From an uncultured Clostridia bacterium (GTDB lineage Bacteria > Bacillota > Clostridia > Christensenellales > DTU072), in the NCBI GenBank assembly GCA_944372095.1, contig CALVYG010000049.1, forward strand, positions 954 to 64,953: a DNA stretch of 64,000 nt, in the 5' to 3' direction. Position numbers and translations under genes: made by a program. Shown piece after piece: positions 20,349-44,672 of the stretch (position 1 is the stretch's first letter; each line of letters starts with the position of its first letter). The notes beneath the pieces are model-generated. The model was not told the DNA's origin, made no database searches, and saw only the letters and a program-made list of their open reading frames with translations.

Positions 20349-20368
20349 ATAATCAAAAACGCTATTTA

Positions 20369-20484: not shown

Positions 20485-20493
20485 CTTTATTTA

Positions 20494-20522
20494 AATTTAC
20501 TCCTTTTTACAAACTTTGTCAA
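20494..20522 (-). promoter_or_regulatory. Putative promoter of the riboswitch-ribU unit (TTGACA, 17 nt, TAAATT)
   Basis: The -35 TTGACA at 20522-20517 overlaps the TGA stop of the giant gene. The -10-like TAAATT is at 20499-20494. Confidence 0.4.
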
Positions 20523-23500
20523 CTGTTTGCAGTATTTTGTTGAAATCCTATACAATCGTATACGCTTAATTCTATGTCACCTAGAACTTCAAATCCCATA
20601 TAATAAGCTCCTTTCATAAATAATAAGTCTTTATTATTCTCACTATCGTTACTGCTACTGTAATCATCTGCCTCAATATTGCTTAAATCATTCCCAACAG
20701 GGATGTATCCGATTTTTTCAGCCATTGAATCTATAAATATTTTTACTTCATAATTATCTTTTGGAACAGACGAACTGGAATCCGGCCGTTCTAACACTTC
20801 ATAGTAATCAATTATCATCGTAATTTGATGTTCCTGTCCGTCACATAAGTTAATACCGCTTTCCTCATTAAATATTTCTTGTCTTCTGTATAAAGTATTA
20901 TACTTATAGAAGTATAACATTAACGAGCCCGTTTCTTTGTTATATTCAATCATTAAACCTCTTTGATTCTGTATATCTCCGAACGGTGATAAATTACTTA
21001 TATAATACGGCGTGTTCATTCCGAAATAATACCTGAATCCTCCTTGCGTTCCTTCCGCTTTGAATCTGATATTTACAGCATTACCTGCGTATACCATCGG
21101 AGTATCATATTTATCAGTCGCCATGTAGATTTTACCGGATGTTAAAATTTCATCGTTTCCTGTATAGCTACCCTTAATTAAATTGTTATTTTCTAAATCT
21201 TCGTTAGTGTACCCTACATAATCAACTGAGGTATTAACAGGCATGTTGGAAAACATATCAACAAGTCTTATTGATGCATTTTCCAAGCCTATTCCGGCAT
21301 AATGGGCTGAACCTGGTTTTAATACAACATTTTCAATTTCTGTTCTGGAAATTCCGGAGCCTGAATCAACTTCCGTTCCAAATCCTGTTTTAACATAGTC
21401 TTCAAAAACAAGTTCGGTTCCGTCTGTCGTATGTTGATATAATCTGAACGTGATTACAGTATCGTCATACATCCGAATACCGTTATCGTCTTTTGCAATA
21501 ACATCCCCGGTCTGAATATCCCTTTCTACCCTTGTAAGCGTAATTTTTAATATATTGACTACCGAAGAGTCTTCTGCAAAATTTATAGTTTTTTCCGTAC
21601 CGTTCCATTGTAATCTGTCATAAGAACCGATATCGTTCGGTAGCTGTCTTGATACCATAACTCTTGCCGTAGTACTAGGTATTCCTCCTATCAGTTTCTT
21701 TTCAATCCTCAACGCTATCCCGGACGCTTCCGGCAATTCAGGATATCTGTTACTCAAATTCCTGTATTCTGTATCCGTCAATTTAAAATACATCCATATT
21801 ACTCCGGAATCGGAATTAAATTTAACACTGTCAAAAATGTATGTTAATCCTGATACTCCGCTCATTTCATTTTGTAAATCGTTTGTAAAATAATAACCGT
21901 CTGAATAAGATTGCGGAGAAGACGAATCTATTTTTTTGCCATCCAATATGATTTGCTCAGAATTATTTTCAGTTATAAGAACTCTTATGGTCTTTTCGTT
22001 TAATTCATATTCTTGATTGTTTCCGTAATTATATTTGGTTACGTATTTAATAATATATAAACCGGGTTCTGTAGTCACATAAGAAGGAATATTTTCAATA
22101 TTGGTCGTTGTTTCTGTTACGCTTATAATATTTTTTTCATCGTTATATTTCGAGTTATAAGCATCCATCGCTTCTTCTCCGCCACTTATTGTTACATTTC
22201 CTACCTGTGAAAGTATTTCTGAAATATTCTGTGCCGTTCCCTCGTTAGTTATATAAGGTATATCATTGGAATCTTCTCCTGCCGGCCAAAATACAACATT
22301 CGCTATGTATCTGTTATTTGTAGCTGTTCCGATTAGTCTGTTTTGAATCGTAAATTTAGAAATCATCACCTTCAAACTGTCATAATCAATACCGACTTTT
22401 CCCGTTCCAGTAAAAAAGTTTGCAAGATAGGTAGTATATTCTTTGATATACTCATCTCCACGCCCATCATTATAATGGTTATATGTTTCTTTTAAACTAT
22501 AATCGTAAGGTTCACCTATAAAACTGTATATATATGTCCTTTCATCCACACTGACTCTGACTGTGAATATTCTGTCAGCTGTTATCGTAGTTTTATTTAC
22601 CTTAGTTTCTCCTATTATTTCTCCGTTTTCTTCATCAAAAATTGATGTAGGAATTCCATCGACATAATTATACCCTACGTTAGAAAAAGCTCCTACTTTG
22701 TCAATATAAATACTGAATGAGTGATTCCCTCCGTCAAACAAATTAATAAGATTGCTTGATATAACGCTTTCACTATAATTTACATACAAATCTGCTATTT
22801 GTGAAGAAATATCATCCCCAAGGTCTTCAACGACTTTTTTATAATAATAGCTCTTCGCAGAAATAAATTTCTCGTCTTTCGTTAATATGAATCCGTTCCC
22901 AATTTTCTCATAGAACAAATTGTCCGGAATATCATAGTCACTCAAATCAATATTTTCCATACTCAAATCTAAACCCAAATCATTCATAATATCATCTTTG
23001 GTTGCAAGTTCAAATCTGCAATATTCGGCCAATTCGTCTTTAAGCATTATTTCCCCTTCCTCAAACCCGGGATAATTATTTTTGGCTTCAATATAAAATT
23101 CGTTATACATCATGCGAACATAACTCATATCAGGTTTATACCCTAAAACAAGCTTACCGAAATCATTTTCGTAAAGGATTATCTCGAATTTACGAGCACT
23201 TTCACCTGCGTTTACGGGTACTAAACGTGCTCTGAGATTAATTATATCAAATTTTCCGATATAATCGCTACCGCTCGAATCCGCTAGCTTATAAACGGCG
23301 GCCTGCTGACTTAAATAATCCCCGAGTCCTTCTGTTCCATCTATGTTCTCTCTTTTTAATACTCCGCCTGACGCCTTGTCAAGTATAGTATCAGAATATC
23401 CGGTTTGCTTTGTTCCTTCTTGTTTCATTGTAACTGAAAAATAATTACTTTCTAATAATCTTACAATTTCACCGCCATAAAAAGATTCTTCCAATATAAT

Positions 23501-26500
23501 TTGTACAGTCAATACGTCGCCAATGGCAGGTTGCCCGGATTCACTCAAATTTACACTTGAATATTCAGGTATATACTTAATCGTTAGTCTTCTGTCGTAA
23601 GTCATTCCGGCATAAGAATCAACAGAATAATCTGCACTGCGTTTTGTATCAACATACTGTATTTGGTTGTCGTCGATAAATCCGCCGAAATTATACCTTA
23701 ACAATATACTCAATCCCGATATTGTATTCTCGCTTATGTTTACAATTACTCCCTCCCTTGTAGATTCAGTATCTGCAATAAGGTTTGCATATCCGCTGTC
23801 TGTCGTATAACGCCCTATTCCTTCAATTTCAGGATAAAGCATAATTTCTGAACGCTTAAATTTTAATTCAAAGTTTTCACTTTCTAATCCCGACAATGCA
23901 ATAAATCTTATAGTTCCGCCGCTTTCGGCAAGGGTTTCATCACCTTCTCTGTAAACATATATAGAATAATTACAAATTGCAGACATAAATTCGTTAATAT
24001 TTTTATACGTCATTCCGTTATATTCAAATTCCTTGGAATCAATATTATATTCTGCTCCCAATATTAATGCTATTTGTTCTGCTAAATTATTATATTCTGT
24101 TCCGTTTACACTAAACGGTTCAATACTTACGGTATATCCCAATCTTCTGTCTCTAGTGTCAGTTGAGTCTATTTCTCCTGCATAATATAATTGATTGCGC
24201 TCAGACCATAAAGCACTGAAATAGTCATTATAAACCCCTTCTCCGATTGAATAAGATTTCTCTACAACATTCATGCTTATCTCTATTTCTTTTTTAACAA
24301 CAATGTAATTAAATATTCCCCAAACAATTTCGTAATTGTCGAATATTGGCGTTTCAGAAACGAATTCTCCCAAATTGTAACTATATCCTTGTTCACTGAC
24401 TTCTGAGTTTGCTGCCTTTTCTCTTAATAAGTCAAGCAATATAGCATTACTTACGCCCGTTCTGATTAAATTTTGTTCTTGCTGCAATGTGATACCTGAA
24501 CTATCGTTATTTACATTATAAATTCCGTTTTCCTTTATCTCCTCACCGGTCGCATGATTTATATATGTATATATCCCGAAAGAATTCAATGTCGGAAGAC
24601 CGTTATAAACGGTTTCTCCGCTATCAAATATATCTCCGTACATCACTTCGCTATTTATTTGGTAATCAATTATTATTTTTGCTTTTGCAACAGTAAGGGG
24701 CAGATAGACATAAATCCCGTTATTCACAGAAATCCCATCCCATTCACTTTCTACAAGAGATTCATTTACCACCGTTGTTCTTACAATATAATTTGAATCA
24801 TTGGAAGTAAACATAGATGAAGGAATTCTTACATAATATTGGTCATTTGAACCCCTTACCCATGTTCCTGCCGCAACGGCTATAGAAGTATTGTCAATAA
24901 TGTAATCTTTCAACATATTTCCTGCGCTGTTTTCAATTTCTAGAATCGAATTTGCCTCATCCTCATCCATATCAGGTACATTTACTTTAAACTTATAATT
25001 ATCCGTATCTTTATCAAAATAAGCTCTCTCTACTCCAATAATTTCGATTTCTTTTCTGCTAATTCTGAAATTTGTTCCTTCAATTACAATTTCATATTTT
25101 GAAGTATCTGATGAAAGACCGGTTCCGCCGGTTAAATATCTTTCAATAATTTGATTATTCGAATCATATTTGTTAGCCGACAAACTGTTCATAGTTTCGC
25201 CACTGATTTTTACGTATTTTACTCCGTCAACAGTAATATATTTAGATTCATCTACCATAGACGCTGCTACATATACAGGGAATCCGGAACAAACTCTTCC
25301 GTCATCAAGCAGTGTAAGCTGTCCTCCTGATGAATTTATTATTTCATTTATTATATTGTTTATTGTACTAAGATTGGTATCGTATCCGTTAATAAACTCA
25401 TATTTTCCGTCAGCGTAATCAAATGAAAAATATAAACCTTCTCCTGCTCCGAAACTTGTTCCGTATGTCATTTCATTTTCTCGGGTAACAATATTTATTA
25501 AAGACAATCTAAGATTAACTTTACGAGCGCGCACTCTGAAACTAATGTTACTGTTCACAAAGTTAAAGTTTTTATTTGCTTCAATCAGTGCATTTATCCC
25601 AGCATTTACCGGACTGCTGTTTGCATCGTATATTCCTGATGTAGCACCGAAATTAAATCCTTCTTCAACACACGTGTAGTAGCTTTTCAAATTTTCGATA
25701 TATTTTATATTTGTAAATTCGGACGACGATGAATCATAAACATATAACCCATATTTAAATAAGCCGTTTTTTTCGTTAGCATTCAAACTTTTTGCTAAAT
25801 CAAAATAATATTTACCGTCGCCGGATGATGTTCCGTCCGTAACATTCACGCCGTATGTATAACCGTTATACGTTATAAGATATTGATATTGAGAATTCCC
25901 GACAGAAGGTACGTTTTCCTCATCGGCATTAACATTTAAAGTTCCGTCAGCATTGTCCGTAGGATTGATAACGACATAAACGTCCCTCGGTGAAATGTAA
26001 TATATTCCGTCACAGCCATGATAATCTACCGAGCTTCCTGTCGGTTGTTGTACCGCAAAACGATAATTCCAACTAAGCCAATCATCTGCTTCAGGGTCTT
26101 TTGATTCAAAAGTAATATATTCTCCGTCTGCATTTCCTTCCGGCAAAAATACTCCGCGGAAATTATACCAGTAATATCCGACATTATATTTTTCATTCCC
26201 GTACGTTGTAGTACCTATCTCAGTTCTTTCCGGTATGGGTTTGAATGACGCAGTAGATGTTCCGTATCCCTTTAATTCCAGTTTATAAACCATTTCAGAA
26301 ATACTGTCAATTGGACCGTTCCCTAAAACAATCAGTTCATTTGCTGTCCCTGTAAATGTTAAATTTTCTCGATTCGTTAATCCGTATCCGTCATATTGCC
26401 TGGATAAATATGGATTAACCGCATTCTTCAAATCAAAAGTAACCGTCCCCGGATAAATTGTATATATACCTATATTATTATGACGTACACCGTTTTCATC

Positions 26501-29500
26501 AACATATTGAACAGATTCGTCCGCAAAAACAATATCATAATTCATATTCCCCAAATCATCCATATACGATGCTCTGACCATAAGCGTTCCCGCATCGGTT
26601 ATATTTGCGGATGCAGATATTCCGTCATTGTCTCTAATATATTGATAATCTCCTATCATCATTTCTGATTGAGGTCTTTCATAGGTGAAAACTAAGTTAT
26701 TTTTATTAATTTTATCTGTATTATAATCACCTATTAACGTAAGCGCGGAATCTGTACTTCTTACCGAAGCCGGATTTCCGTCGTATACTTTGTTATTTAA
26801 TGTTCCAAATCCGTAAAGATTTACGGTTTTAGGCTGAATTACTAATTCATAACCGTCGCCGTCGGCAAATTTTATAAACTCAAAATTATTTCCTTCACCC
26901 GTTTTATATACAAATACTACGGCATAATTTATAAAATCGCTATTTACAATTCTATACGATATAGGATAACCTTCAATATTTCCGTCCTCATCTCTCTTAA
27001 CGTTTCTCGGATAATTTCCGTTTTCGTCTGCAGTTGAAATTATAAGGTTAGAAGGCATAAAATCCAAATTCCCGTATAATAATTCCGTCTTATCTGCCGA
27101 AGAATAATATTCTTTTACTATATAACATGTTGTTGTTCCGTAACTGTAATAACTATTCGAATCACTTGCTTTTTTCCACGCTGTATCAATCGGATTTATT
27201 CCGCTTTCTCCTGCCTGATATGTTTTTGTTATAGTTAAGGGATTGCCGTCTCCGTCATCAACAGGATAATTAATATATATAGGAATATCTATCGGTTTAA
27301 TATTTACCATACCTGCATAAGAAGCAACTTGTCCGTCTTCGTCGAAATCAAACGAATAGTTCGTATTCCCTAAATCAACGACTTTTACAATATAATTTCC
27401 TGCATTTACAAGAGTAAATAAACCCGAAGCAACCGCTTCTCCGTTATCTATTGAATATGACGCAAGCCCTATATTTTTCAATGTTTCTGTATCTTTTTGG
27501 TTATATGTTATTTCTAAATCAAAAGTTAAACTCAGACTGTCTCCGGGACAAATGTCACCATTGATTATTTGTATGGAGACAGTTTGATTTTCTTCGTTAA
27601 ATATACTTGTCGTATCAACAACTTTCATCTTTAATTTTACCGTTGTTACCTCATATTTGAAACTTTCGGTATAAGTCATCGGTTTTGTTCCTGTCCCTGA
27701 GCCATATGTTTCATCAAATATGTAGTTTAAAATATGAGCGGCGGCGGAAGCCTCCAAAACCATAGTACTTCCGAGATACAGATAATTTTTGGTATCCGTA
27801 TCAAAATATGAATAAGTCATCGTTCCCGTATAGATCCCGGCGACCATACTGTTACTGCTTGCATATTGTATATCTGTATGTACAATTTGATAAGAAATTC
27901 CGTCCTTATATGCGTATGGTGTATAACTTGCCCCGTCTAAGCTACAATAACTCGTTAAATCAAAATCACTGCGATATTTTCTTGCATACGCTTCCGACAA
28001 AGTAAAAACAGCCTTTCCTTCAGAATCGTATGAAAGAGATTTTCCATAACCTATTTTAATAAACTCAGGAATTACTAAAATATATGCGCCTGTTGAATAA
28101 TCACCGGTTAATGCAAGTATTTCGTATCTGTTTTTCCAGCTATCATAAAAATGCTGCACGTATGGCTTAGGATTTTCGATTTCACTTGAATACTCGCTAT
28201 ACAATGCTATATCAAAATCATTACCTGTATTCTTCGTATTAACATTATGTATACCGACATTTAAATCCCCTGTATCCCTTATAAATTCAAACTGTGAAAG
28301 TAAAACCTCTTTACTTAATCTGTATTCTACGGCACTGCCGTCAATATCCAAATATGTAATTGAAATAATGTTATCTTTAAACAATGCGTCTATTTCCGTA
28401 TCAAAAGTATCTTTATCGATTATCTCAACAGTAAAATCGTCTCCGGCAAAGTAAGAAGCCAACAATCTTCCGTTTGTTCCGTTATTTTGGTCTTTAATCT
28501 GACTGTTACCGCTTACAACAAATGACTTGACATTAATTTCTGCCGTGATTTTATTAATATGTATTGAAAATGAATATTTTTCCCCCTCAGCCTCATAGGA
28601 ATCCAACGCATAATTTTTCAAAGTAAGAGACGATGTATCTATCAGAACATAATATTCTCCTGCGGGAAGATTAAAAGGCAGTAAGCTGTAATTTCCTTCA
28701 TATTCCAAACCTGAAACAGTAAATTTTTTGTATCCCCAATCCGCCGCAAAGTCAGTACACGCTTTATCTCTGTAGATTTTAACATTTTTATACAATATCC
28801 CCCAATCGTCACACTCTCCGACTATTTCCAAAGCATATTGACCTGTAGAATAATTATAATAAATTATGCTTCCGTCATCAAAATAATTTTCAAATAAGGA
28901 TTCAAAACTGTCCCCGCCTAAAACAGGAGTCTCTTTTGAAGCAAAAAATTTCATTTTTTCAGACAAGACAGTTTCTCTTCCGTCATTATAGATAAATTTC
29001 GATGTCCCGAAATTTTTAATTAAATCTTCACCTGCCACAAGAATAAGAGCCTGTTCTATTTCAAGATTGCCACCACAATACATAATTTCATAATTAGATA
29101 ATGTTTCTGGCGCACCGGAATATATCGGATGCACGTCTCCGGCATCGTCGGTATCTGTTGTTGCTCGTGTAAGATTATATTCTAGTGTAGAGGTATCCGT
29201 ATAAATTATTTCGGAAGTTAAATCAAATATCCCGTCACCGGTATAGATTAAATTATCATAAGCAAAATGTATGCCTTTTTTTGTTCCAATCGGTTTAAGT
29301 CCGTCTGTTTCTTCTCTAATGATAATTTGATTTCCTGAAACTAAATTCAGGTCAATATCCCCTAGAATACCAATAACATCTTCATAATTATAAACTCTGA
29401 ACTGATAATCCGGGTCCGAATCCCCGTAAACTTTACTTACGCTCTCTACTGCAATAACTATCGGGCGTTTGATAACCGTTAAATCTGCCTCGGCGTAAGA

Positions 29501-33976: not shown

Positions 33977-34172
33977 TTTCACGTATGACCTCCGACAAAA
34001 GGGCATAATATACCCTTATATAATATTTCATATATATAATAACATAGTACAAACTTTAAATCAAGTTTTAATATTTATTTAATATGCGAAAAAAAACACC
34101 GAAAAAGCAGACAATATGCACCATAGAATGAATATCGCTTTTAAATAAAATCAAATAAAAATAATAAAAAAT

Positions 34173-35381
34173 TTAATATTTTTTTCTAAATAATGCGACC
34201 AAAATCACAACAATCAATATTGCAGCGACACCTATTGTTCCTGCAATAATGTATGTCGTTAACCCTATTCCCTCAATAGGCGTAATTATCAGAAAATCAC
34301 CCATATCTGCCGCATTAAAAATCAGATATTCTTCTGAAAGAGAGGCATTTAATATATCGGTATTTCCGTTATTGTACAGTGCTATTACGCGGTAACTATT
34401 TTTATTTTTTAAATTATCGGCAAGACGAATTCTTACAGTTGCGGAAACATTGTCCGCCAAACTTCCGTCTATGCTGCTTATAACGGAAATATTATAGCAA
34501 GCCACTACTTCGTTGTCCGTAAGGATAGTTCCGCTATTTGCATATTTTCTTTCAACGTCCGACTCTATTTCTACATATTCCGCACTTGACGTGCTTGTCC
34601 CGATATCTTTAAAATTTAATGAATACACTGAACTGAAACTTCCGTTTAAGGCTACCAAAATATCATTTTCGGAGACCAGTTTCAACTCAGGGACCAATGT
34701 TCTTGTAATTGTGAGTGTAGATTTTTCATAAGAAAAATTATAATAATCACTCCTTGCATTTCCGGCTACTACTGTATATTTTTCAACAGGCGTTTTAGGC
34801 AATGTCTCCACATATGCTTTATTTGTTAAAACATCGTCATTCAGTGTCCTTACCGTCACGCCGTTTACGGTCTCAATCCTTACGTCCTTATCTACAGCTC
34901 CTACGTAGTCATAATTTATTTTTATATTTTTAATTTCACTTTCTTCGATAGTTAAATCTGTTGTGCCGTTAAGCAGAACTGTTACGGAAATATTTCTTTT
35001 TGAGATTTCAAATGAAACTTCTTCGCTTTGATATATTCTGTCATTATAAAAATATTTGAAAACGCATTTATAGTTTTTTCCGGGTTTAATCGCATTCATA
35101 TCCGAAATCAATGTTATTTTTTCTGCATCGGGAGTAATTTCCGTGCCGTTTAATGTGAAAGTAAATGCATCTAAAAATGTTTTTTTCGATTCCTCGGATA
35201 TGATATAATTTTCACCTATGTAATATAAATTTGATGACTGTTTTACTGAAAAATCATTTAAATCTTCCCGAGCATAGGCAATATCTTTTTCATTTAATGA
35301 AAACAAACTTAACGTAATTATAAATATTAACGTTGTAATCCCTAATATGACTTTTAATACTTCTCTAATAATATAACTCAT
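34173..35381 (-). CDS. Membrane-anchored surface protein (402 aa): N-terminal signal/anchor, one MBG-like repeat, C-terminal TM helix plus basic tail
   Basis: N-terminus is VILGITTLIFIITLSLFSL. An ISKRNISVTVLLNG...STLTITR module follows. The C-terminus is GLTTYIIAGTIGVAAILIVVILVALFRKKY. Its ATG directly abuts the TAA of the upstream 3096-aa gene. Confidence 0.75.
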   Translation of the reverse strand: MSYIIREVLKVILGITTLIFIITLSLFSLNEKDIAYAREDLNDFSVKQSSNLYYIGENYIISEESKKTFLDAFTFTLNGTEITPDAEKITLISDMNAIKPGKNYKCVFKYFYNDRIYQSEEVSFEISKRNISVTVLLNGTTDLTIEESEIKNIKINYDYVGAVDKDVRIETVNGVTVRTLNDDVLTNKAYVETLPKTPVEKYTVVAGNARSDYYNFSYEKSTLTITRTLVPELKLVSENDILVALNGSFSSVYSLNFKDIGTSTSSAEYVEIESDVERKYANSGTILTDNEVVACYNISVISSIDGSLADNVSATVRIRLADNLKNKNSYRVIALYNNGNTDILNASLSEEYLIFNAADMGDFLIITPIEGIGLTTYIIAGTIGVAAILIVVILVALFRKKY

Positions 35382-38300
35382 TTATGCCTTTTTCACTACT
35401 ATAATTATTGCACATGCTATCAGAACGACCGCAACGGCTATTCCGACATACAGCAACCAGTCATACTGATTGTCGTTTACTTCTTCTGCCTCTCTCAATA
35501 CACTTACTGCTTTAACTAACGGCTCTGCCGTTTCCACGACAAGATAATCTCCTTCCTGTCTTCCGTTAACCACGCTAACGCTGCCGTCCGATGCCATAAC
35601 TGCCACATAATACTCTCCATCGGAATTACTTGCCTGAGCAAATAATTCAGGCATATATAATTTAATACTGGTAGTACCGCCTGTTGTTGTAGGAATATAA
35701 TTCTCATAACTAAATACATATATATCTTTTAATATATTATTTATATATTCTCCGTGAGTACTTACAAAAGAATTAAACGCTTCATTCATATCGGCATATT
35801 CTGTATTCTGTTTCTTAGATACGTTAATTTGAGTATTTACAGAGAATGAACCCTCAATTATAACGCTAACAGTATCGGAAGAAGTATTATCTGTCGCTTC
35901 TAATTTTGTTTTGTTTATGGTAAGAATTCCAAACGTATAATTGAGATTATAATTATTTGAAATTCCTCCGTAAGCAGTAATTTTATATGACCCGGGCGCC
36001 GTAGGCATTGTATCAACAATGTCTCCGTCTGTAGTATAATATCTGTACTGCAAGCCGCTTACCACGCTTGAAATAGCTTCATTTGTCAGACATCCCACCA
36101 TTGTAGCAGTTGGAGAATATACCGTTCCTTCGTTAACAGTAATATCATTAACTTTAATTGTTAACTCTGCTTTTTCAATTATAAAATTACACCATACAGG
36201 GTCAGTGATATAATAATTTTCAAGTATCTCATAGGCCTTTACCCTGTACTCACCTGCGGAAGAAGGGTTCGCGCCGATACTCGTTATCTCTCCGTTTTCG
36301 TTTATTGTATAATTATCAGGAACCCAAACTCCTTCAATAAGTTTATCAAATATTAATTTCGGATAATACTCTTCACCGTTATCAATAAAATACATTCTGA
36401 TACTCACGCTTGTTCCTGTATATTTATACCTGGGCGCGACATCATAATTAATTGTGGTATCCCTTCTGGAAATAGTAAAATATTCCGTCGCGCGTTTGTA
36501 AGCAAAGTTATCCGTTTCCTGATGTATTGCCTCCGCTATATATGTTCCTGCAGGCGCTATTGAAATATCCGGAACAAGGTCGCCCTGTTCTCCTTCTTCG
36601 GTTAAGTAATAATAATTAACTCCGAGTACGGTACTATACCCTTTAACCCCGTTTGCCACCGCTGTAAGCCCTTCGGTAACATTACCATACATTTGTATTC
36701 CTTCCCCGCCAAAATTAATTTCAACTTCTGCTTGTAATATTTCAAGATAACCTGTTTGCGGCGACTCCGAGTAGTTTTTATTGGTTATAGTAACTATAAC
36801 CTCATAATAATCACAATTTGTAGGAGCTATATCACTGTCCCAATTTGATTTTTCCGACTTATACCATACAGTATAATCTCCGTTTTCTACAGTAAGTATT
36901 TCACCATTCACGCCGTCTACTTCAACAATTGCCGGCTGAGGTTCCCCATTATATGTTACCCTTAAAATATTTACTATTTGACCTTGCTTATTTAAAAATC
37001 TTACTGTTGCACGGGCAGGATTAATAACACCGCATAACCTGATATAAGTAACTCCTTCATTTGTGAACGTATCGGACATATCCATTGATAACTGATAGTT
37101 CTCGGCATCGTCACCTAGTAATACCGGTTCGACATATAGGTAAACGTCAATATCGCTCATTACTTCATATTCGTCATAAACATCCTTACGCGCATATCGA
37201 CTGAGCGCATAATTGATTTTCAGACTGATAAAGTCTCCCGCCACAAGTCCGGTATCTCCGCTTTGTTTGCTGAAAGAATAGTTTCCTGCGACATCTGTTC
37301 CCTGCGGGACCACACTGTTTTCAATTACTTTATCAGTTCCGTCATATTCTTTCGAAATTTTATCATTTGTTCCTGCAACATAAGATACACCGACAAGTCG
37401 TTTTGTAATGTTCAACACCGGATACAGCGTTTTGCCGTCTTCTTCCGCATATTTCACCACAATTTTATAGTTATCCGCATAACCGTATTGCCCTTCTGAA
37501 ATGACAATTTTAATATAATATTCACCTGCATTCACAGGCATATAAGTTGTACCGTCTTCGTTAATTAATTCTTCACCTGTTTCGGCATCGACAAAAACAA
37601 ATAAAGGATTAACCAGTCCTAACATCGAAATACCTGTACAATAACCGTCGGGAATCGTGTCGGGTCTGAATTTTATTTGCTGCGTGCTCTTATTGTCCGC
37701 TCTGTCATCATCACCTTTAAATCCTTCGTATTTAACTCCGAATGTGGGATAAACACCTTCAACACCCGTATAAGTCATATTGGCATAACCTCTGCTGACT
37801 AAACCGTACTCGTCAACAAATTCTAAAATTAATTCGCTTTTTTCCACGGCAAAAACCCAATAAAAAGGTTCTTCTATACCTATATAATTACGACTTGAAC
37901 CTATTGAAATGCGGAATAAATAATAATCGACATTTATCGCTCCCGCAACATCTCTGATTGCATCGGCATCTGTATAATCGGTTCTTGACGGGTCATAATT
38001 GTTTATACGACCAATGAAAGTAACTTCCTTTGTAAAACTGGCATCTTCTCCTATATCAAGGTCGCTTCCGTCCCAACCATACCTCTTAATATCGGGAGTC
38101 AGCGCAATCCCCGCATACGGTTTTGATTCGTCAATCACTACGCAAGGATAACTTCCGCCTATACTTAATTGTAATTTCTTTATTTCAAAATCTAATGTAT
38201 TTGAATATTCAAATGCATAATCGGTATAATATACGTTAATTCCGTCTACCATGACAGTACTGACAGGCTCTTTCCCTTCCATAGCTTTAACATAATAGTC

Positions 38301-41300
38301 GGTTCCTGCACTCTTTTTCTGTCCTTGCGGGTCGTTATCTGTTTTTAATCCGCCTGCTTCCCAATCGATTTTCGGCATTTCGGTTATTAAGGGTAAAAGA
38401 ATATTTCCATCATTTCCTGCCCAATTTTCAAACGTAAAGAAAAATTTATCTTCAACCGATTCATTTGTCATTCCGTAGAATTTATAACTCAAATCTTCAG
38501 GTTTATCCGGCTCTGCTCCTGTTTCAGGGTCTCTTGTATTAATATTAATTATAAGCCTGCGAGCATCTATTCGGACTTTATATACCAACTTGTATGTGAT
38601 ATAGTTATTATTATATGTTGAATTCCTTCCCTCGAATGCAGCTTCCGTGGTATCGTTGAAATTGGCAATAAAAGTAATGTAAAATTCGTTAACATGGGTA
38701 AGATTAATATAGGTATTTTCTATCCATTTATCTACCACTTCACCGTTTTCACTTTTGAAATACAAATATGAATAATCATTTATATATTCCGGAGTAGTTG
38801 ACATATATGCTCTGACGTTAATTATTTCTCCGTTCGTTGAATCTTCTCCCAAAACCCTCATAGTTTCTTTGAACCATAATTCTTCGGAATCGTATGTTTT
38901 AGAGTATGTTCCAAGATATCCGTTACCGTTTTCCTCACTATTGACTACTACACTGTTACTTGCACTCACAACTATATTTATATCGTCAGACCTTTCAATC
39001 ACCAGGTATAATACAAAGTATGCTTCATAATCTTCGTCCGGAGTATATAATGAACCTTCGAATTTTGATTGTGACGTGCGATTTTTGAAACGTAAATTAT
39101 TACGCATATTAACGACATCTTCACCTTCTGATGCAACAGCATTATTTATTGTAGCTTTAACCAGAACCACATATAATCCTGCGTCCTTAATAATATCCCC
39201 TTCCGATGCCGCTCTGAAATCTCCGGGCAAACCAAGTTCATATTCGGCAAACATTTGTAATTTACTATCTGCAAAATTTTCTTCTTCTGTATACATATAA
39301 GAAAATTTCGGAATAGAATCAATATAAGCAACTTCAAGCTTTGCCCAACTACCCGGAAGTATAACATCATTATTTTCAAGAGTCGTTCCTTTATAATACT
39401 CCCCGAATTCTTTTAACGCATATTCATCATCGATAAATTCATCATCCCAAATAGGGTTAATAACCGTTCCCGAATAATTCCCTGATTGATGTTCCAATAA
39501 ATCGACTTCTAAGATTTCAACGCTGAAAATTACCACTTGAGTTTTAGTTCTTGAATAGTTAGTGGCACTTCCGCCTGCCGATTCAGACGGGGACGCATAA
39601 ACCTTTAATAAATATCCACCTTTGTTACCGTAAATATCGTAAAATACATTTTTGATATTCCTGTTAAGAATCGACGCATTATCGTCTTCGTTTATTTCTA
39701 TATATATTTTTCTTCCTTCAACTATATCTATATATGCTTCTCGTCCATTGTCCGATTCAATTTCAAAATCGGGCTCTATATTTTCCGATAAATATGTTTT
39801 AGTTAACGATAAATTATTTTCATCGTAATAATAATATCCTACTCCGTCATTATAAATATATATTTCTTCTCTCGTAATGGTAATTTTTGCTTTTTCTCTG
39901 TCATTATCGACATAATAGTAATACAAGGATCCATTAGCGTATAACTTATATTCAACGTTCTCTATTACTGCATAAATTTCGGAACCTTTCTTTTCAACGT
40001 TAACTTCTGTTCCATTTTCGTCAAAATATGTTTCAAAATAGAAATAATAATCTCCCGTTTGACTTTCTGCCGGTCCGGAGGAAATTATCCCTTCCTTTAT
40101 AATTACCGTATCAGAAGAAAAATCTCTTACAAAAATATGGTACTTCCCATCCGTTCCTTTTGCATAATACGCTGCGATATATTGAGTTAAATTCGCCGGC
40201 GCAGGCAAACCGTCTTCCGTCAGCACGTTTGATTCGGGAATCAAATTGGTCCCGTCATAAGAAACCTGCTGACTCGGATTAATATCTAAAACAAGCGTTT
40301 GTCTTTTTACATATAAATCCCCTGCGATATAATTAAATCTGTAATTTTGCTTATATGCTCCACTGAGAATTACAGCTCCGGATTTTCTTCCTGCTTGATC
40401 TACATACTCTCCTCCGACAATAAAGCACGATGTATCAATCGACACTACCGCTTCCTTATCCGTTTCCGGTGAAAAACTGTCTCCGTCGGCTAACCCTACA
40501 TAATAAAGTCTTATTAACGAAGTATCATATAAACCGGAAGTCGGATCGTCATTTTTGTAATATATATATGTTCTAATATAATCTCCGCCAACGTTTGTAG
40601 GATATAATTCATATGTGTTGGGATCCATATATGCAATATAATTTTCAAGTTCGGCAGACGTAAGAAACTTCATTCTATCCTCTGATACGTCCGCCTTTAT
40701 TTCATTGTCAGGATCGTAATTTGACATATAAGTTCGAATAGCGGCCGTTGCATATACTGTAATTTCTGCACAATATACACGAATCGTAACAGTTGTTGTA
40801 ACTTTTTTATAGTTGGTGGTTTCTGGCGTACTGACTTCCAAAATGTAATCACCCGCTAAACGCATATTATAGATATCTCTAGTAAATTCACTGGGATCAT
40901 AAACTCTGTCGTCGCTTACATCTTCCGTTTCTCCACCGATTGAAAATCCAATAACATTAATTAAACTCATGAAATTCGATGAGCCGTCGGGTTGAAGAAA
41001 TTCTGAGTTTTGTCTTATTGCTTCATATTCGTCATGCCTTGTAATAAGTATAAATGATTTTTGTATATCCGACGTATATACCAAACTTATTTTATCTGTT
41101 TTATCATAAACCAGATTTCTGCCTTTATCCACATCTTCTTCTTGTATATCAAAAACTTCCTCAGGTAATTTTACCACCTTTGTAATTTCTATACCAATAT
41201 CATTTCCGTTTATTGTTTCATCGGTTATTTCGTCTTTCAGGACTATGTTATAATTAAGAATGGTAATTGAATTTATCACAGACAAATGATAGAACCCTGC

Positions 41301-44300
41301 ATCAGAATCTTGTTCAAAAGCTCTTTTTTCCAATTCTCCCGATAAATCGTTTTCTCTTTCTGCATTTTCCCAATCAATAAATTCATAAGTTTCAACTTTG
41401 GAATAAATACCGTCATCGGTTTGATTGAACAACTTTACTTCAAAATTTGTATTATCCCACCCAAAATCTTCCTTTCTCGTTGTTGTATTCAAAAATCCAT
41501 AATTAGGCTTTGACGAATCACCTTCGATTTCCAGTAAAATATAACATGTATTTTTAAGAATGCCCGGTAAATCTGCATAGAAATAATAATATTCACTAAA
41601 TTTTTCCTGATTATATAACAAATAGTAATCAGCATAATATTCTTTCCCTTCTGTTATTTCCGGTCTGGATTCATCTTGTTTATATAATTCAAGCAAAGAT
41701 GTTCCTTCTGAATTTAAATCGTAATATCTTGCCACTCTGATAGCAACGTATGTAGCGGAATTATATCCTCTGCTGTAATCCATCCTACTGTAATTCGGGT
41801 CAGACACATCTGTAATCCTGTCAGGGTCTTTCAATACGCTTAACTCTAACGTTCTTCGAAGTATATATCCGGTAATTCTTGTATTTTCATCATTAAGTCT
41901 TAATCCGGGCTCAATATTATAACTTGAAGAAATCAGTTCAAATTCGTCGTGAGTCATTTCTTCTCTGGGATCCAAGGTTACTTCTCCGCTGATATCCAAT
42001 TCCTGGTCATAATCACTTGCCAAATATGATGAATAAAAAACATTATAGTTATACATTATATTGTTTTTAAAATCGTAATCGAAAACATTGGAATATTCAG
42101 AAAGAGCAGAAGATAGTCCGGTTCCCTCTTCTTGTTTTAAAGTCGCTTGCGCGGTAGCGTCAGAACCTTGTGCTCTCTTTACTTCGTCGGTTCCGTCATA
42201 ATATTTTATTGCAGTATAATCCGTAAGATTAAGATAAAGCGTTACAGGGTTTATCCTAAACTGAGAAGGAATATTCATATTAACCACCGCTACGCCTACA
42301 TTATTTCCGCCGGATTCGATAGTTACCGATGATTTTCCCAAATCACAAGAATCAATATTTACCGCAGTAGAAGAATTACTAAGCATATATGACAAAGAAT
42401 AAGTTATATAATACTCTCCAGCATACAAAGTACTTGTATAAGGTGTATAAGCAGTTCCTTTCTCATCCTCGTAATCTCCGGGTTTTTTATCAAGCTGACT
42501 TTTTTTCGCAATTTGCATTAATACAAAAATATAATTATAATTGCCTATTACTTTTCTTTCCGAAGTACTGCTTATAATCCTTATACGCCAATTTTCTAAA
42601 CTTGTAGAAATATCATAAGTTGCATCGTCATGTTTTCCGTTACCGTCTAAATCAACTTCGGTAAGCGACCTTCCGTTAAGCACTACTTTACTGAAATCTA
42701 TATCGGAAGTATTCCATATTTCCCCATAATACGCACTCGTGAAATTTACCATAAATTCAGATATATCAATTATAATTTCCGGCGGTGTTATTGCAAAGCT
42801 GTCATAATATTCATATTGCTTCATGACACTGTTTTCGGAAGAAGTTAATCCTTCTTTTATTTGTCTTGTTGTCCCCTCCGTGTCAACATCAGCATAAGAC
42901 TTCCATACTCCATTTTGATTTTCGCCCAAGTCAATTGTATAATTTGAAGCTATTTGATATATTCCTATTGATATAAAAACAACGATATGGTCATATGTCC
43001 TGATTTCATATCCAGGAAAATATGAACCTGTGAAAGATAATAAAGATGCTGTGCTGCTTTGAATAGAATATAAATCGTTTTCATATCCACCCATAGCCGC
43101 CCATGCGTTACCTGCATTCATTCCGCTTACTGAATTTGTAAACAGCTCTGCCGCACTGCTTTTATTGATATAATATGTTTTCAAAAATGAAAAACGGTTA
43201 TCGGTTGTAGCAACAAAAGTATTATCTGATTGTTTTTCAAAATATGTTCCCGAAGGCATATTTTGACCGTTTTGATCGGAAAAAAGTACGGCTTCCGTAT
43301 AAGGCGATATAAACGGAGCACTTATTACATCGTTTTCTTTTTCAACACTTATACCTATTCCATCTTTTATGCTGACTTTAAGCGTAGCTTTTGCGACAGT
43401 AAGCTCTTGAATATAATTATCCCTGTTATATAAAAATCTTACTGCATAATATGTTCCTGTTCCGTCGATACTCTCATAATAAAAATACTCCGCGCCCTCG
43501 GTTGCACCTTCAATCTGAATATAATACGTCCCGGCATTGACAGTATCTGCATCAGCTAGTTGTTGTTGAAGTTCTTTTTCCCTGTACCAAACTAACCTTA
43601 AAAATGCAGCTACGCTACCGCCTCCGCTGAACAGTTCGCTTTCCGCACCAAAAGTTGTATTGTTTAATAGAGTAGAAAAACCGTATGATGCTTTAAAAGG
43701 CTTTCTGCTGCCGTCGCTGAATGAATAATAAAAATGCTTATCGTCTGATGCGGCGGAACTACTGACATTTGAGTCATACAAAACAATATTATCTATCCAT
43801 TTAGTCGTACTGTCATATACAGGATTAATGTTCAAATTGTTTTCTATTTGCCCGCCTATACTGCTTCCGAATGCAACTGTAGTCGTAATAAACAATTCAA
43901 AATTTGTTGTACATTCAAAACTTGCTGTATAATTTTGTTCTTTTGTAATAACTTCGATCGGTTTCGGCTCACCGGAATCAGCACCTGTAACATTTGTGAT
44001 ATTAAGATTTGAATATGAAGTATATTCCAAATTAAAATTGTAGTTAAAAGATATTTTTTCTATTATGTAGTCTCCGGCGACAACATTTTTTCCGTCATTT
44101 TCTAAAATATTAGAATTACTTATTTCTTGCCCATACCAAGTTGTTCCGCTTACCCAAATTCCAGTGACATTAATCTCATTTGAATTTAACCCGAATAAAA
44201 CATTATCAGGCGTAACGCTCACGTCAGACCCTGCGGGATTGCTTCCTCCGACAAAATCTTTAGATACCAATTCTGAATCATTTACATCACCTTGCCACCA

Positions 44301-44672
44301 TGTCGTATAATCTTTATATTTATATTCGTTAAAAGAAAACTTTACTCCGATTTTATTTAGAAGTGAAACCGAAGAATCAGCAGACAGTTTTGAATGCCAC
44401 TTTTTTCCGTCTGTAACATCTATAACAATTTTCCCAAAAAGAGAAGATTCTGCGCCTTCCGAAATAGGAACAACTGTAATTTCATCAGTTTTTGGCGGTG
44501 TACTTTCTTGATAGCTAACCGCATATGCCGAATTATTTTCTGCATATTCTGAAAATTCCAGCTTTGAATTACTAAAAACCGCACAGGCCAAACATGTAAG
44601 TATACCTAACATAAAACCCATGGAGCATACTAATAGTTTCCAAATAACATTTTTTACGCCGGTTATTTTCAT
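35382..44672 (-). CDS. Giant surface protein (3096 aa): N-terminal signal/anchor, many MBG/YDG-type repeats, C-terminal TM anchor
   Basis: Uninterrupted 9.3-kb ORF with a GGGAGG RBS. The N-terminus is WKLLVCSMGFMLGILTCLACAVFS. Repeat starts include INPVTLYLNLTDYTAIKYYDGTDEV, VKRQTLVLDINPSQQVSYDGTNLI, ITKRLVGVSYVAGTNDKISKEYDGTDKV and IEKAELTIKVND. The C-terminus WLLYVGIAVAVVLIACAIIIVVKKA has no LPXTG. Confidence 0.85.
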   Translation of the reverse strand: MKITGVKNVIWKLLVCSMGFMLGILTCLACAVFSNSKLEFSEYAENNSAYAVSYQESTPPKTDEITVVPISEGAESSLFGKIVIDVTDGKKWHSKLSADSSVSLLNKIGVKFSFNEYKYKDYTTWWQGDVNDSELVSKDFVGGSNPAGSDVSVTPDNVLFGLNSNEINVTGIWVSGTTWYGQEISNSNILENDGKNVVAGDYIIEKISFNYNFNLEYTSYSNLNITNVTGADSGEPKPIEVITKEQNYTASFECTTNFELFITTTVAFGSSIGGQIENNLNINPVYDSTTKWIDNIVLYDSNVSSSAASDDKHFYYSFSDGSRKPFKASYGFSTLLNNTTFGAESELFSGGGSVAAFLRLVWYREKELQQQLADADTVNAGTYYIQIEGATEGAEYFYYESIDGTGTYYAVRFLYNRDNYIQELTVAKATLKVSIKDGIGISVEKENDVISAPFISPYTEAVLFSDQNGQNMPSGTYFEKQSDNTFVATTDNRFSFLKTYYINKSSAAELFTNSVSGMNAGNAWAAMGGYENDLYSIQSSTASLLSFTGSYFPGYEIRTYDHIVVFISIGIYQIASNYTIDLGENQNGVWKSYADVDTEGTTRQIKEGLTSSENSVMKQYEYYDSFAITPPEIIIDISEFMVNFTSAYYGEIWNTSDIDFSKVVLNGRSLTEVDLDGNGKHDDATYDISTSLENWRIRIISSTSERKVIGNYNYIFVLMQIAKKSQLDKKPGDYEDEKGTAYTPYTSTLYAGEYYITYSLSYMLSNSSTAVNIDSCDLGKSSVTIESGGNNVGVAVVNMNIPSQFRINPVTLYLNLTDYTAIKYYDGTDEVKRAQGSDATAQATLKQEEGTGLSSALSEYSNVFDYDFKNNIMYNYNVFYSSYLASDYDQELDISGEVTLDPREEMTHDEFELISSSYNIEPGLRLNDENTRITGYILRRTLELSVLKDPDRITDVSDPNYSRMDYSRGYNSATYVAIRVARYYDLNSEGTSLLELYKQDESRPEITEGKEYYADYYLLYNQEKFSEYYYFYADLPGILKNTCYILLEIEGDSSKPNYGFLNTTTRKEDFGWDNTNFEVKLFNQTDDGIYSKVETYEFIDWENAERENDLSGELEKRAFEQDSDAGFYHLSVINSITILNYNIVLKDEITDETINGNDIGIEITKVVKLPEEVFDIQEEDVDKGRNLVYDKTDKISLVYTSDIQKSFILITRHDEYEAIRQNSEFLQPDGSSNFMSLINVIGFSIGGETEDVSDDRVYDPSEFTRDIYNMRLAGDYILEVSTPETTNYKKVTTTVTIRVYCAEITVYATAAIRTYMSNYDPDNEIKADVSEDRMKFLTSAELENYIAYMDPNTYELYPTNVGGDYIRTYIYYKNDDPTSGLYDTSLIRLYYVGLADGDSFSPETDKEAVVSIDTSCFIVGGEYVDQAGRKSGAVILSGAYKQNYRFNYIAGDLYVKRQTLVLDINPSQQVSYDGTNLIPESNVLTEDGLPAPANLTQYIAAYYAKGTDGKYHIFVRDFSSDTVIIKEGIISSGPAESQTGDYYFYFETYFDENGTEVNVEKKGSEIYAVIENVEYKLYANGSLYYYYVDNDREKAKITITREEIYIYNDGVGYYYYDENNLSLTKTYLSENIEPDFEIESDNGREAYIDIVEGRKIYIEINEDDNASILNRNIKNVFYDIYGNKGGYLLKVYASPSESAGGSATNYSRTKTQVVIFSVEILEVDLLEHQSGNYSGTVINPIWDDEFIDDEYALKEFGEYYKGTTLENNDVILPGSWAKLEVAYIDSIPKFSYMYTEEENFADSKLQMFAEYELGLPGDFRAASEGDIIKDAGLYVVLVKATINNAVASEGEDVVNMRNNLRFKNRTSQSKFEGSLYTPDEDYEAYFVLYLVIERSDDINIVVSASNSVVVNSEENGNGYLGTYSKTYDSEELWFKETMRVLGEDSTNGEIINVRAYMSTTPEYINDYSYLYFKSENGEVVDKWIENTYINLTHVNEFYITFIANFNDTTEAAFEGRNSTYNNNYITYKLVYKVRIDARRLIININTRDPETGAEPDKPEDLSYKFYGMTNESVEDKFFFTFENWAGNDGNILLPLITEMPKIDWEAGGLKTDNDPQGQKKSAGTDYYVKAMEGKEPVSTVMVDGINVYYTDYAFEYSNTLDFEIKKLQLSIGGSYPCVVIDESKPYAGIALTPDIKRYGWDGSDLDIGEDASFTKEVTFIGRINNYDPSRTDYTDADAIRDVAGAINVDYYLFRISIGSSRNYIGIEEPFYWVFAVEKSELILEFVDEYGLVSRGYANMTYTGVEGVYPTFGVKYEGFKGDDDRADNKSTQQIKFRPDTIPDGYCTGISMLGLVNPLFVFVDAETGEELINEDGTTYMPVNAGEYYIKIVISEGQYGYADNYKIVVKYAEEDGKTLYPVLNITKRLVGVSYVAGTNDKISKEYDGTDKVIENSVVPQGTDVAGNYSFSKQSGDTGLVAGDFISLKINYALSRYARKDVYDEYEVMSDIDVYLYVEPVLLGDDAENYQLSMDMSDTFTNEGVTYIRLCGVINPARATVRFLNKQGQIVNILRVTYNGEPQPAIVEVDGVNGEILTVENGDYTVWYKSEKSNWDSDIAPTNCDYYEVIVTITNKNYSESPQTGYLEILQAEVEINFGGEGIQMYGNVTEGLTAVANGVKGYSTVLGVNYYYLTEEGEQGDLVPDISIAPAGTYIAEAIHQETDNFAYKRATEYFTISRRDTTINYDVAPRYKYTGTSVSIRMYFIDNGEEYYPKLIFDKLIEGVWVPDNYTINENGEITSIGANPSSAGEYRVKAYEILENYYITDPVWCNFIIEKAELTIKVNDITVNEGTVYSPTATMVGCLTNEAISSVVSGLQYRYYTTDGDIVDTMPTAPGSYKITAYGGISNNYNLNYTFGILTINKTKLEATDNTSSDTVSVIIEGSFSVNTQINVSKKQNTEYADMNEAFNSFVSTHGEYINNILKDIYVFSYENYIPTTTGGTTSIKLYMPELFAQASNSDGEYYVAVMASDGSVSVVNGRQEGDYLVVETAEPLVKAVSVLREAEEVNDNQYDWLLYVGIAVAVVLIACAIIIVVKKA

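Follow-up and report, generated by a model that had tools for sequence, protein, structure and literature searches.

Why should a bacterium spend 24 kb, read from consensus promoters, on three envelope proteins of which about 90% falls into no known family? The locus that raises this question lies on contig CALVYG010000049.1 of assembly GCA_944372095.1, from a gut-type uncultured Christensenellales bacterium, and we analyzed it within a stretch of 64,000 nucleotides (nt), referred to below as the window. Three adjacent minus-strand genes are concerned, named here A (3096 amino acids [aa]), B (402 aa), and C (about 4487 aa). The answer that we favor, with somewhat better than even confidence, is that they encode a triad of envelope proteins, exported by the Sec pathway and tethered by a membrane helix or a lipid, in which the giants A and C would form adhesin-like fibers. 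Scaffolds or loci of relatives carry L numbers (L003 to L023) and related proteins carry P numbers (P0057 and others). Residues of C are numbered from the first ATG of its open reading frame (ORF; positions 20519 to 34006, 4495 aa).

The three ORFs behave as genuine genes. From base composition, the probability of 4495 codons without a stop is about 1e-164, and across the open frames the values run from about 1e-113 to 1e-164; the longest open stretches in the other four frames of the region are 69 to 119 codons. No meaningful tandem or direct DNA repeats occur between positions 20000 and 45000, so these 24 kb contain nothing for an assembly to collapse. At least six metagenome assemblies, drawn from different projects, contain the locus. 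One of them is identical to the window, and in an independent assembly, which shares 97.3% of its nucleotides with the window, the ORFs code for 3097, 402, and 4502 aa. Between the window and that strain, the ratio of nonsynonymous to synonymous substitution rates (dN/dS) is 0.26 for A, 0 for B, and 0.15 for C, with not one nonsynonymous change in B within the species. Mis-assembly or pseudogene decay of the giant ORFs would find support in a single observation, the seemingly broken gene C of L003, but what interrupts the gene there is a stretch of 100 Ns left by scaffolding. Given the freedom from repeats, the intact ORFs in assemblies from independent studies, dN/dS values below 0.3, and the improbability of such frames arising by chance, we reject both artifact readings as having next to no probability. 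A first-pass annotation made from the letters of the DNA had described three consecutive co-oriented genes with a TAA-ATG junction between A and B, and had held that selection keeps the long frames open. The sequence confirms the junction and the arrangement, which spans 24,154 nt or 37.7% of the window, and the dN/dS values agree with purifying selection; the refuting scenario that it had named, chimeras of collapsed repeats, fails, there being no repeats to collapse. In L012 (positions 2931 to 8957 of JBJETX010000230.1, a contig from a Christensenellales metagenome-assembled genome [MAG]), a C-like ORF ends after 2008 aa, shortly before the contig runs out, and truncation, a frameshift, or faulty assembly could account for this.

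The ends of the proteins indicate how each would be held at the membrane. Protein A has hydrophobic segments at residues 8 to 36 and 3069 to 3096 and B at residues 3 to 31 and 371 to 402, with none elsewhere in either, which confirms the earlier description of both as having an N-terminal signal and a C-terminal transmembrane (TM) helix with a basic tail (KKA in A, FRKKY in B). Orthologs of A range from 2631 to at least 4534 aa, and all share W-x-[LY]-[YF] at the start of the TM helix (DW[LM]LY in most), with a short tail rich in Lys and Arg, for example KKRA or KKA, behind the helix. Orthologs of A and B also have conserved A-x-A sites, placed a few residues past the N-terminal hydrophobic region, and these point to cleavage of both proteins by signal peptidase I. 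The start codon of C is most likely the GTG at position 33982, which is preceded by GGAGG and gives a protein of 4487 aa. The first ATG of the ORF sits in a conserved hairpin of the 5' untranslated region (UTR) and is absent in L014, and the alternative start proposed earlier, Met11, was not borne out, having no equivalent ATG in L007 or L013. The one hydrophobic segment of C spans residues 13 to 39 and leaves it without a C-terminal anchor helix. Its lipobox is shared by all of its C-like orthologs (L007, L011, L013, L014, L016, L017, and L020), which have FVAC, MVAC, IFGC, MTSC, or FSAC at the same position. C and its orthologs therefore agree with the lipoprotein pattern [LVIFM]-x-[GAS]-C with a conserved Cys, as had been proposed from the window alone.

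Motifs and machinery of other anchoring and secretion routes were sought as well. Neither LPXTG nor its common variants precede any anchor in a regular-expression search, whose sole match, SPQTG at A residue 2637, is far from the terminus, and Pfam gave no S-layer homology (SLH) or choline-binding domain in the three proteins, in agreement with the first-pass annotation. Pfam also found no sortase, type I or type VII secretion system (T1SS, T7SS), or accessory Sec family in A, B, C, or the window ORFs of at least 100 aa that were scanned. RTX or T1SS matches are absent from A, B, C, and their neighbors, the three proteins having N-terminal Sec signals instead, and the scan of neighbors showed no SecA2/SecY2 or glycosyltransferase gene adjoining the locus. 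The absence noted at first is thus upheld, but the significance once attached to the missing sortase is not, because proteins held by a TM helix or a lipid do not depend on sortase and the window covers only 64 kb. Under the reading that we favor, the general Sec pathway would export A, B, and C. The signal peptides of A and B would be removed at A-x-A, a C-terminal stop-transfer helix would hold both as type I proteins, and their Lys/Arg tails would lie in the cytoplasm. The lipobox cysteine of C would be diacylglyceryl-modified, so that C would hang from the membrane by its N terminus.

Gene B encodes a miniature, collinear paralog of the membrane-proximal end of A, a kinship that the first-pass annotation had not recognized. 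An hhalign comparison of the B and A families gave a probability of 98.3% and an E value of 1.7e-14, collinear over 320 columns, in which B ectodomain residues 38 to 371 pair with the last 340 or so ectodomain residues of A (2726 to 3064). The AlphaFold2 (AF2) model of B, with a mean predicted local distance difference test (pLDDT) score of 77, consists of a signal helix, beta-sandwich domains at residues 41 to 127, 128 to 228, and 230 to 368, and a TM helix at residues 374 to 401. Foldseek found no match to this model with an E value of 1e-3 or lower, only generic Ig-like strings and ZU5-like sandwiches turning up, and we therefore claim no specific fold family for B. Closer still to B, with 27 to 30% identity, are the C termini of the giants P0057, P0058, and P0063, where a TM helix and LFRRKY close the sequence; the last 550 or so residues of A align with the C termini of the same three repeat-rich giants and of P0064. 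In L022 and L023, the second gene, at the syntenic position of B, is itself a giant of 3378 to 3812 aa with a B-type end, and B is therefore the stalk-less counterpart of that second giant. An exhaustive HMMER search of 1.84 billion representative proteins with a B profile returned 50 matches, which makes relatives of B rare. About 25 clusters consist of B-like proteins with 376 to 410 aa, and the others include giants of 3.1 to 3.8 thousand aa (kaa) that hold the B module at their extreme C terminus. In some 25 sequence clusters, B stays at roughly 390 to 410 aa and has a near-invariant PxEG...TM...FR[RK]KY end. With its length and C-terminal end kept and no nonsynonymous change within the species, B is not decaying.

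This conserved end could also be taken for a processing or sorting signal (P-x-[ES]-G or GLS, TM helix, FR[RK]KY), by which B-type proteins would be cleaved and covalently attached to the wall or to a lipid. Sorting signals of the LPXTG and GlyGly-CTERM types consist of a short motif, a TM helix, and a basic cluster, and the B-type layout resembles them. FR[RK]KY is near-invariant among B-type proteins that are only 26 to 50% identical and recurs on the 3.1- to 3.8-kaa giants, and P0074 has IPKTG, a TM helix, and RRKK after the homologous beta-sandwich. The motif before the TM helix varies, however (PIEG, PKSG, SRGS, PKNA), and A has none. The window offers no candidate enzyme, a 340-aa membrane protein encoded next to A being only weakly MusI/YesL-like, and the positive-inside rule together with stop-transfer constraints can explain a conserved tail. 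On balance, we regard a sorting signal as very unlikely and continue to read the B-type end as a plain membrane anchor.

What lies between the signals and the anchors is beta-rich sequence of a kind that is hard to classify. All three proteins had been described as arrays of the same MBG repeats, of which a motif-level signal is all that stands; BLAST, hidden Markov models (HMMs), and Pfam show no shared repeat architecture. Self- and cross-BLAST detected neither internal repeats within A or C nor similarity between the two, and self-BLAST, seeded phmmer, and two iterated HMMs found no repeats shared by A, B, and C. An HMM built from bona fide YGX-type MBG repeats recognized one unit in A (residues 2862 to 2919), one in B (residues 161 to 225), and none in C. 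A second HMM, of a repeat of about 105 aa seeded on a KVYDG-containing unit, found 11 to 13 copies in related giants and has no match in any of the three proteins here. The Pfam matches are MBG_3 and a weak MBG_2 (18.9 bits) in A, a weak MBG_2 alone (16.2 bits) in B, and about five Big_3 domains with a weak MBG_2 (16.2 bits) in C, each MBG_2 score being below threshold. The MBG_3 domain of A (PF18887) scores 31.7 bits when its segment is scanned alone, against a gathering threshold of 25, and 21.2 bits in the whole protein. NCBIfam gave no match for the three proteins, searches of A and C against PDB sequences and profiles gave nothing beyond Big_3, and about 90% of A and C is annotated by no known family.

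The composition is as first described, with Tyr, Asn, Thr, and Asp each making up 7 to 8% of A and C and 6 to 8.5% of B; Ser reaches about 8% in the proteins, with no Ser-rich repeats. The MBG-like end signature G-x-Y...N-Y occurs 11 times in A, against 2.7 expected (z = 4.9), and with a hydrophobic end it occurs 5 times in C, against 1.0 expected (z = 3.7). These motifs occupy invariant columns of the A ortholog alignment, and the enrichment and the invariance together make scattered, very divergent MBG-like units plausible. The first-pass annotation had overlooked that most of the sequence is nonrepetitive and lineage specific, and A and C are best described as long, nonrepetitive chains of beta-rich modules that have diverged strongly, with only a part of the modules being MBG-like.

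Protein C has recognizable domains at its two ends. Its first 600 or so residues contain Big_3 domains (PF07523; E value of 8.8e-38), found as four stretches and one weaker, which score 112 to 129 bits against a threshold of 21.2, match the PDB entries 2l7y, 4fd0, and 4fdw, and are absent from A and B according to Pfam. This region makes up about 13% of the protein, and the remaining 3900 or so residues have no family assignment. The last 200 or so residues are 45 to 47% identical to the only distant ortholog available, a homology search with the last 1200 residues having returned one partial ortholog. An AF2 model of the last 500 residues was built from these two sequences and has a pLDDT of 42 overall and of 50 to 80 in parts of the distal domain. 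No sequence or profile match to this domain was found in Pfam or the PDB. When its model was compared with the PDB by Foldseek, most of the top 50 matches had a concanavalin A (ConA)-like fold, with E values of 3e-4 to 2e-2, probabilities of about 1, and a target-length TM-score of up to 0.57; they include galectins, legume lectins, neurexin LNS domains, VIP36, GH16, and CBM66. Since the model is poor, the superfamily consistency among the matches was the sole ground used, and the tip of C is tentatively assigned a ConA-like lectin fold.

Conservation along the giants is graded, and the gradient runs in opposite directions in A and C. In A, the most conserved part is residues 2250 to 2750, and in distant orthologs the C-terminal 900 to 1400 aa or so are the strongly alignable portion. 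Residues 51 to 250 or so, which have no Pfam or PDB sequence match, are 87% identical within the species, versus 95 to 100% for the rest of A, and 33% identical in the sister species, versus a mean of 60%. In C, the N-terminal 700 aa or so are the main strongly alignable portion in distant orthologs, and identity to L011 and L014 is 50 to 56% over the first 500 aa, 32 to 37% over residues 501 to 750, and 25 to 40% over the rest. This is the gradient expected for A tethered C-terminally and C tethered N-terminally with fast-evolving distal ends exposed. In the favored arrangement, A would be a string of about 3000 aa of divergent, nonrepeated, beta-rich domains with a conserved base at the membrane and an N-terminal tip pointing outward. 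C would run the other way, its Big_3 stalk at the membrane, about 3700 unannotated residues beyond it, and the tentatively ConA-like tip farthest out. Both could reach beyond the wall as long adhesin-like fibers, and C would possibly bind glycans. B would be too short to reach far and may act at the interface of membrane and wall, possibly with the homologous base of A. Comparison with the 97% identical strain also showed local dips, to 87% identity in A residues 1 to 250 (positions 43923 to 44672), 90% in C residues 2501 to 2750 (25757 to 26506), and 94% in C residues 751 to 1000 (31007 to 31756), against 95 to 100% elsewhere in the two genes, which suggests local diversifying selection or recombination.

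The expression signals separate the triad into two units. The promoter before A matches the sigma-70 consensus perfectly, and TTGACA-17/18-TATAAT recurs upstream of the A-like gene in L007, L011, L013, L017, L020, and L023, including L017, which keeps it despite a differing upstream flank. The ribosome-binding site of A, GGGAGG, stands 7 nt before the ATG, and the gene upstream of the promoter, coding for the 340-aa membrane protein, ends in a hairpin and a U-run (-16.3 kcal/mol, z = -5.4). A and B would be transcribed from this promoter as one operon, with B, whose ATG directly abuts the TAA of A, translationally coupled to A. C, the first ATG of which follows the B stop after 166 nt, would be read from its own extended -10 promoter. 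The candidate promoter and the 166-nt gap, both reported before, were confirmed, and the promoter is conserved in every lineage examined, as a block TTG...-17-TGTTATTAT/TATAAT upstream of C in L007, L009, L011, L013, L014, and L017. The hairpin of the C 5' UTR, kept as a sequence block in L007, L009, L011, L013, and L014, has a folding energy of -10.5 kcal/mol that is not significant against shuffled sequences and lacks covariation; it could be a 5' stabilizer or an attenuator of the 13.5-kb transcript. A terminator after B is clear in L011 (z = -3.7) and not significant in the window, where transcription may read through from A-B into C.

Loci matching the triad were found in GTDB species representatives, all MAGs labeled Christensenellales, "uncultured Christensenella sp.," or "Clostridia bacterium." Word-indexed searches gave 4 clusters for A (96 to 36% identity) and 26 for B; none of the homolog clusters from the protein searches has a source-given name, and our literature search found no account of the locus or of Christensenellales giant proteins. 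The A-B-C order and similar sizes are kept in the sister species at 52 to 60% identity and in lineages at about 40% identity, where lengths stay within about 3%, and the order persists where B is only 29 to 33% identical. In L017, radical-SAM and HIT genes stand upstream and the 340-aa gene is missing, yet the three genes come in order, the A-like one coding for 2631 aa, B for 401 aa, and the Big_3 lipoprotein gene for at least 4178 aa. In L022 and L023, the gene for a 338/339-aa membrane protein is succeeded by one for an A-like giant, whose TM helix is followed by KKRN or RKKA, and then by the giant with a B-type end, after which no C homolog follows; in L023, BipA lies further upstream, with two chromate-transporter genes between. 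The gap between the A stop and the B start is 0 to 8 nt in all lineages with a miniature B. Starting 1 to 3 nt after the B stop, several lineages have an inserted gene of about 245 to 255 aa. It is a DNA-alkylation-repair gene between B and a C-like lipoprotein in L020 (11167 to 11934) and L021 (9057 to 9824), and a gene of similar size takes the same position in L015 (5221 to 5967) and L016 (2614 to 3345), followed in L016 by a C-like lipoprotein. The product has the Pfam domain DNA_alkylation in L015, L020, and L021 and no Pfam match in L016. With this gap and this insertion, A-B is the tightest unit and C a looser, persistent neighbor. Compared with L011, the housekeeping neighbors are 78 to 89% identical and A, B, and C 39 to 41%. 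The triad is vertically inherited in an uncultured Christensenellales clade, and conserved gene order and size classes, which the first-pass annotation had asked about, argue against genes that are scattered among relatives.

Such persistence invites the view that the three proteins build one envelope-spanning assembly, in which B and the base of A, perhaps with the Big_3 stalk of C, would be a heteromeric root from which antiparallel A and C fibers extend. The triad is held together down to 29 to 33% B identity and across a changed upstream flank, the 0- to 8-nt coupling of A and B is conserved in the miniature-B lineages, B shares homology with the module of A nearest the membrane, and conservation in A and C peaks precisely at their membrane-proximal parts. 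There is also precedent in the csc/WxL clusters, which encode mixed-anchor surface complexes (PMC1534035). Against this, C has its own promoter and in relatives is preceded by a terminator, an unrelated DNA_alkylation gene separates B from C in several lineages, and L022 and L023 have a giant in second place with no C homolog after it. We hold a single assembly to be rather unlikely. A more elaborate version, to which we give slight credence, is a clade-specific envelope apparatus in which B, as a base or adaptor (or as the substrate of some sorting step), would organize antiparallel A and C fibers, with the MusI/YesL-like protein as a fourth component.

The same genomic setting bears on whether the fibers bind anything at all. 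Structural envelope components, whether an S-layer-like coat, spacers that span the wall, a sheath, or the like, would suit a locus that is chromosomal, syntenic beside housekeeping genes, and present in every relative found, that keeps a consensus promoter in all lineages, suggesting high constitutive expression, and whose lengths stay within about 3% at 40% identity. Ligand-binding adhesins better accommodate the fast divergence, the tips that are hypervariable even within the species, and the lectin-like fold matches of the C tip, and Pfam scans of A, B, and C turned up no SLH domain and none of the other known domains of S-layers or for wall binding. Giants of 3 to 4.5 kaa are moreover unusual as lattice subunits. 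We consider a purely structural role improbable. Several points nevertheless weigh against the adhesin-like triad that we prefer. Accessory adhesins are not typically encoded by a core, syntenic, strongly promoted locus, a setting that a structural envelope role would fit equally well. About 90% of A and C has no recognizable domain, so a fiber of beta domains is deduced mainly from composition and motifs. The lectin fold of C comes from a low-confidence model built from two sequences. The cleavage of A is predicted from motifs, and an uncleaved N-terminal helix would tether A at both ends.

Coordinates of the locus and of its surroundings are collected in Table 1.

Table 1. Features of the A-B-C locus and neighboring features of the window (residues of C in ORF numbering)
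Feature	Position	Strand	Description
Gene A	35382..44672	-	Predicted 3096-aa giant type I membrane protein; N-terminal signal, C-terminal TM helix and KKA tail
A-B operon promoter	44708..44737	-	TTGACA-18-TATAAT; 12/12 consensus matches
A tip	43923..44522	-	Residues ~51-250; putatively membrane-distal, most variable part of A
A MBG_3 domain	36729..36965	-	Residues ~2570-2648; PF18887
A membrane-proximal module	35481..36494	-	Residues ~2726-3064; three domains, homologous to whole B ectodomain; one YGX-type MBG unit at ~2837-2919 (YGX HMM match 2862-2919; Pfam MBG_2 weak there)
A C-terminal TM helix and KKA tail	35385..35468	-	Residues 3069-3096; kept in all A-like orthologs
Gene B	34173..35381	-	402 aa; signal peptide, three beta-sandwich domains (model), TM helix, FRKKY C terminus
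Gene C	20519..33982	-	Predicted lipoprotein of ~4487 aa from GTG 33982 after GGAGG; ORF open from 34006
Gene C promoter	34036..34064	-	TTGATT-17-TGtTATTAT; extended -10
C 5' UTR hairpin	33998..34017	-	AAGGG-N-CCCUU, then U-run; between promoter and ribosome-binding site
C lipobox	33905..33916	-	F-V-S-C; Cys34; context ...LTMFVSC-SD
C Big_3 stalk	32132..33874	-	Residues ~45-625; about five tandem Ig-like domains; membrane-proximal, most conserved part of C
C distal domain	20522..21139	-	Residues ~4290-4495; C-terminal, tentatively ConA-like lectin/LamG beta-sandwich
FMN riboswitch	20365..20488	-	Rfam RF00050, 91.8 bits; 30 nt downstream of C stop codon
ECF-transporter S-component gene	19472..20356	-	Preceded by the riboswitch; probably RibU-type riboflavin transporter
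340-aa protein gene	44878..45900	-	Multipass membrane protein; Lys-rich C-terminal tail; no Pfam family
Helicase-nuclease gene	10934..14656	+	1240 aa; DUF4011, AAA_11/AAA_12, REase_MTES_1575; strand opposite to neighbors
LRR protein gene	1864..6081	-	1405-aa BspA-type leucine-rich repeat protein; lipobox FSAC
884-aa protein gene	56981..59635	-	Lipobox FVGC; no Pfam family
288-aa protein gene	47753..48619	-	N-terminal TM anchor; just 37% identical to L011 ortholog
474-aa protein gene	61821..63245	+	N-terminal TM or signal segment; acidic low-complexity region
tRNA cluster	63348..63615	-	tRNA-Leu(taa), tRNA-Cys(gca), tRNA-Gly(gcc); near window end

Upstream of the triad stand housekeeping genes for BipA, two phosphofructokinases, YebC, IF3, and ThrS, and downstream are genes for an energy-coupling factor (ECF) S-component, TsaE/TsaB, RimI, a Mur ligase, and Ddl. 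The flavin mononucleotide (FMN) riboswitch and the S-component gene form the downstream boundary of the locus, and a promoter-like TTGACA-17-TAAATT overlaps the C stop codon. The 340-aa gene lies directly upstream of the A-like giant in L011 (8822 to 9841), L020 (885 to 1901), L022 (1 to 662), and L023 (1363 to 2382), staying beside the giant in L023 although chromate-transporter genes part it from BipA. Its product matches one family, MusI, weakly (21 bits, against a cutoff of 160). We considered it as a sorting enzyme or system member and set it aside in view of that weak match, the lack of catalytic-motif evidence, its own terminator, and its absence upstream of A in L017. The helicase-nuclease matches the PADLOC candidate defense models PDC-S37 (E value of 9e-159) and Hhe (E value of 1e-85) and is probably a single-gene antiphage defense insertion. 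With the leucine-rich repeat, 884-aa, 288-aa, and 474-aa proteins, the genome appears to be rich in fast-evolving surface proteins.

The Christensenellales are prominent, poorly cultured gut anaerobes, and little is known of their surface or of their contact with hosts and partners; the triad supplies concrete candidates for the main surface fibers of this clade. B and the syntenic giants of 3.4 to 3.8 kaa are a natural pair, miniature and giant, for asking what the anchor module does alone. Giants that are not repeat arrays bear on gene evolution and on the reliability of metagenome assembly. Should the proteins be independent adhesins, the result is a useful annotation and not a discovery.

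Among known systems, the nearest sequence relatives of the locus appear to be the MBG-domain giants of Firmicutes, such as the MBG_2/MBG_3 giant surface proteins annotated as "MBG domain-containing protein" in lactobacilli (PMC11688250). Shared with them are the N-terminal Sec signal, the large size, the beta composition rich in Tyr, Asn, Thr, and Asp, and, in A and B, a YGX-type unit directly before the final beta-sandwich and the anchor. The related giants differ in having 11 to 13 recognizable repeats of about 105 aa, of which A, B, and C have none, and the triad is anchored by a simple TM helix or by a lipid instead of through LPXTG. From LPXTG surface proteins, A and B have the TM helix and the basic tail and lack the motif itself. 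The first 600 or so residues of C resemble other Big_3 proteins (PF07523; 2l7y, 4fd0, 4fdw) in following a lipoprotein signal with tandem Big_3 domains, but these account for only about 13% of C. Serine-rich repeat substrates of accessory Sec systems are not matched, with Ser at about 8%, no repeats, and no SecA2/Y2 or glycosyltransferase gene adjoining.

In organization, the best analogs are the Giant1-5 cluster of Apilactobacillus kunkeei and the csc/WxL clusters. Giant1-5 are extracellular proteins of 3 to 8 kaa whose consecutive genes occupy a considerable part of a small Firmicute genome; they have Sec signals with neither LPXTG nor accessory Sec, have few homologs outside their lineage, and show evidence of coevolution and diversification (PMC12863079). 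The triad has in common with them the consecutive giant genes, the Sec signals, the lack of LPXTG and accessory Sec, and the scarcity of homologs outside the lineage. It differs in its TM and lipid anchors, in the miniature paralog between the giants, and in having no detectable repeats and, according to Pfam, no DUF5776; Giant1-5 have imperfect internal repeats that are mostly alpha-helical in Giant1-3, an N-terminal beta-solenoid in Giant1-4, and DUF5776/SH3b-like wall-binding C termini (PMC12863079). The csc/WxL clusters of Lactobacillus, Enterococcus, and Listeria encode Sec-exported surface proteins with differing anchors that have been proposed to form a single surface complex, among them CscA, which has about 320 to 380 aa and is anchored by a C-terminal TM segment, and larger proteins, some of which contain ConA-like lectin domains (PMC1534035). 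A conserved cluster, mixed anchors, and a TM-anchored protein of about 400 aa beside larger ones are points of likeness. The parts that define csc, DUF916 in CscA, WxL domains in CscB/C, and LPXTG in CscD, are however absent from the triad in Pfam and regular-expression searches, its proteins are 5 to 10 times larger, and clostridia were reported to lack csc clusters (PMC1534035). Taken with its nearest relatives, the locus looks as if it belongs with the giant, Sec-exported, Ig-like/MBG adhesin-type envelope proteins and is not a new type of machine.

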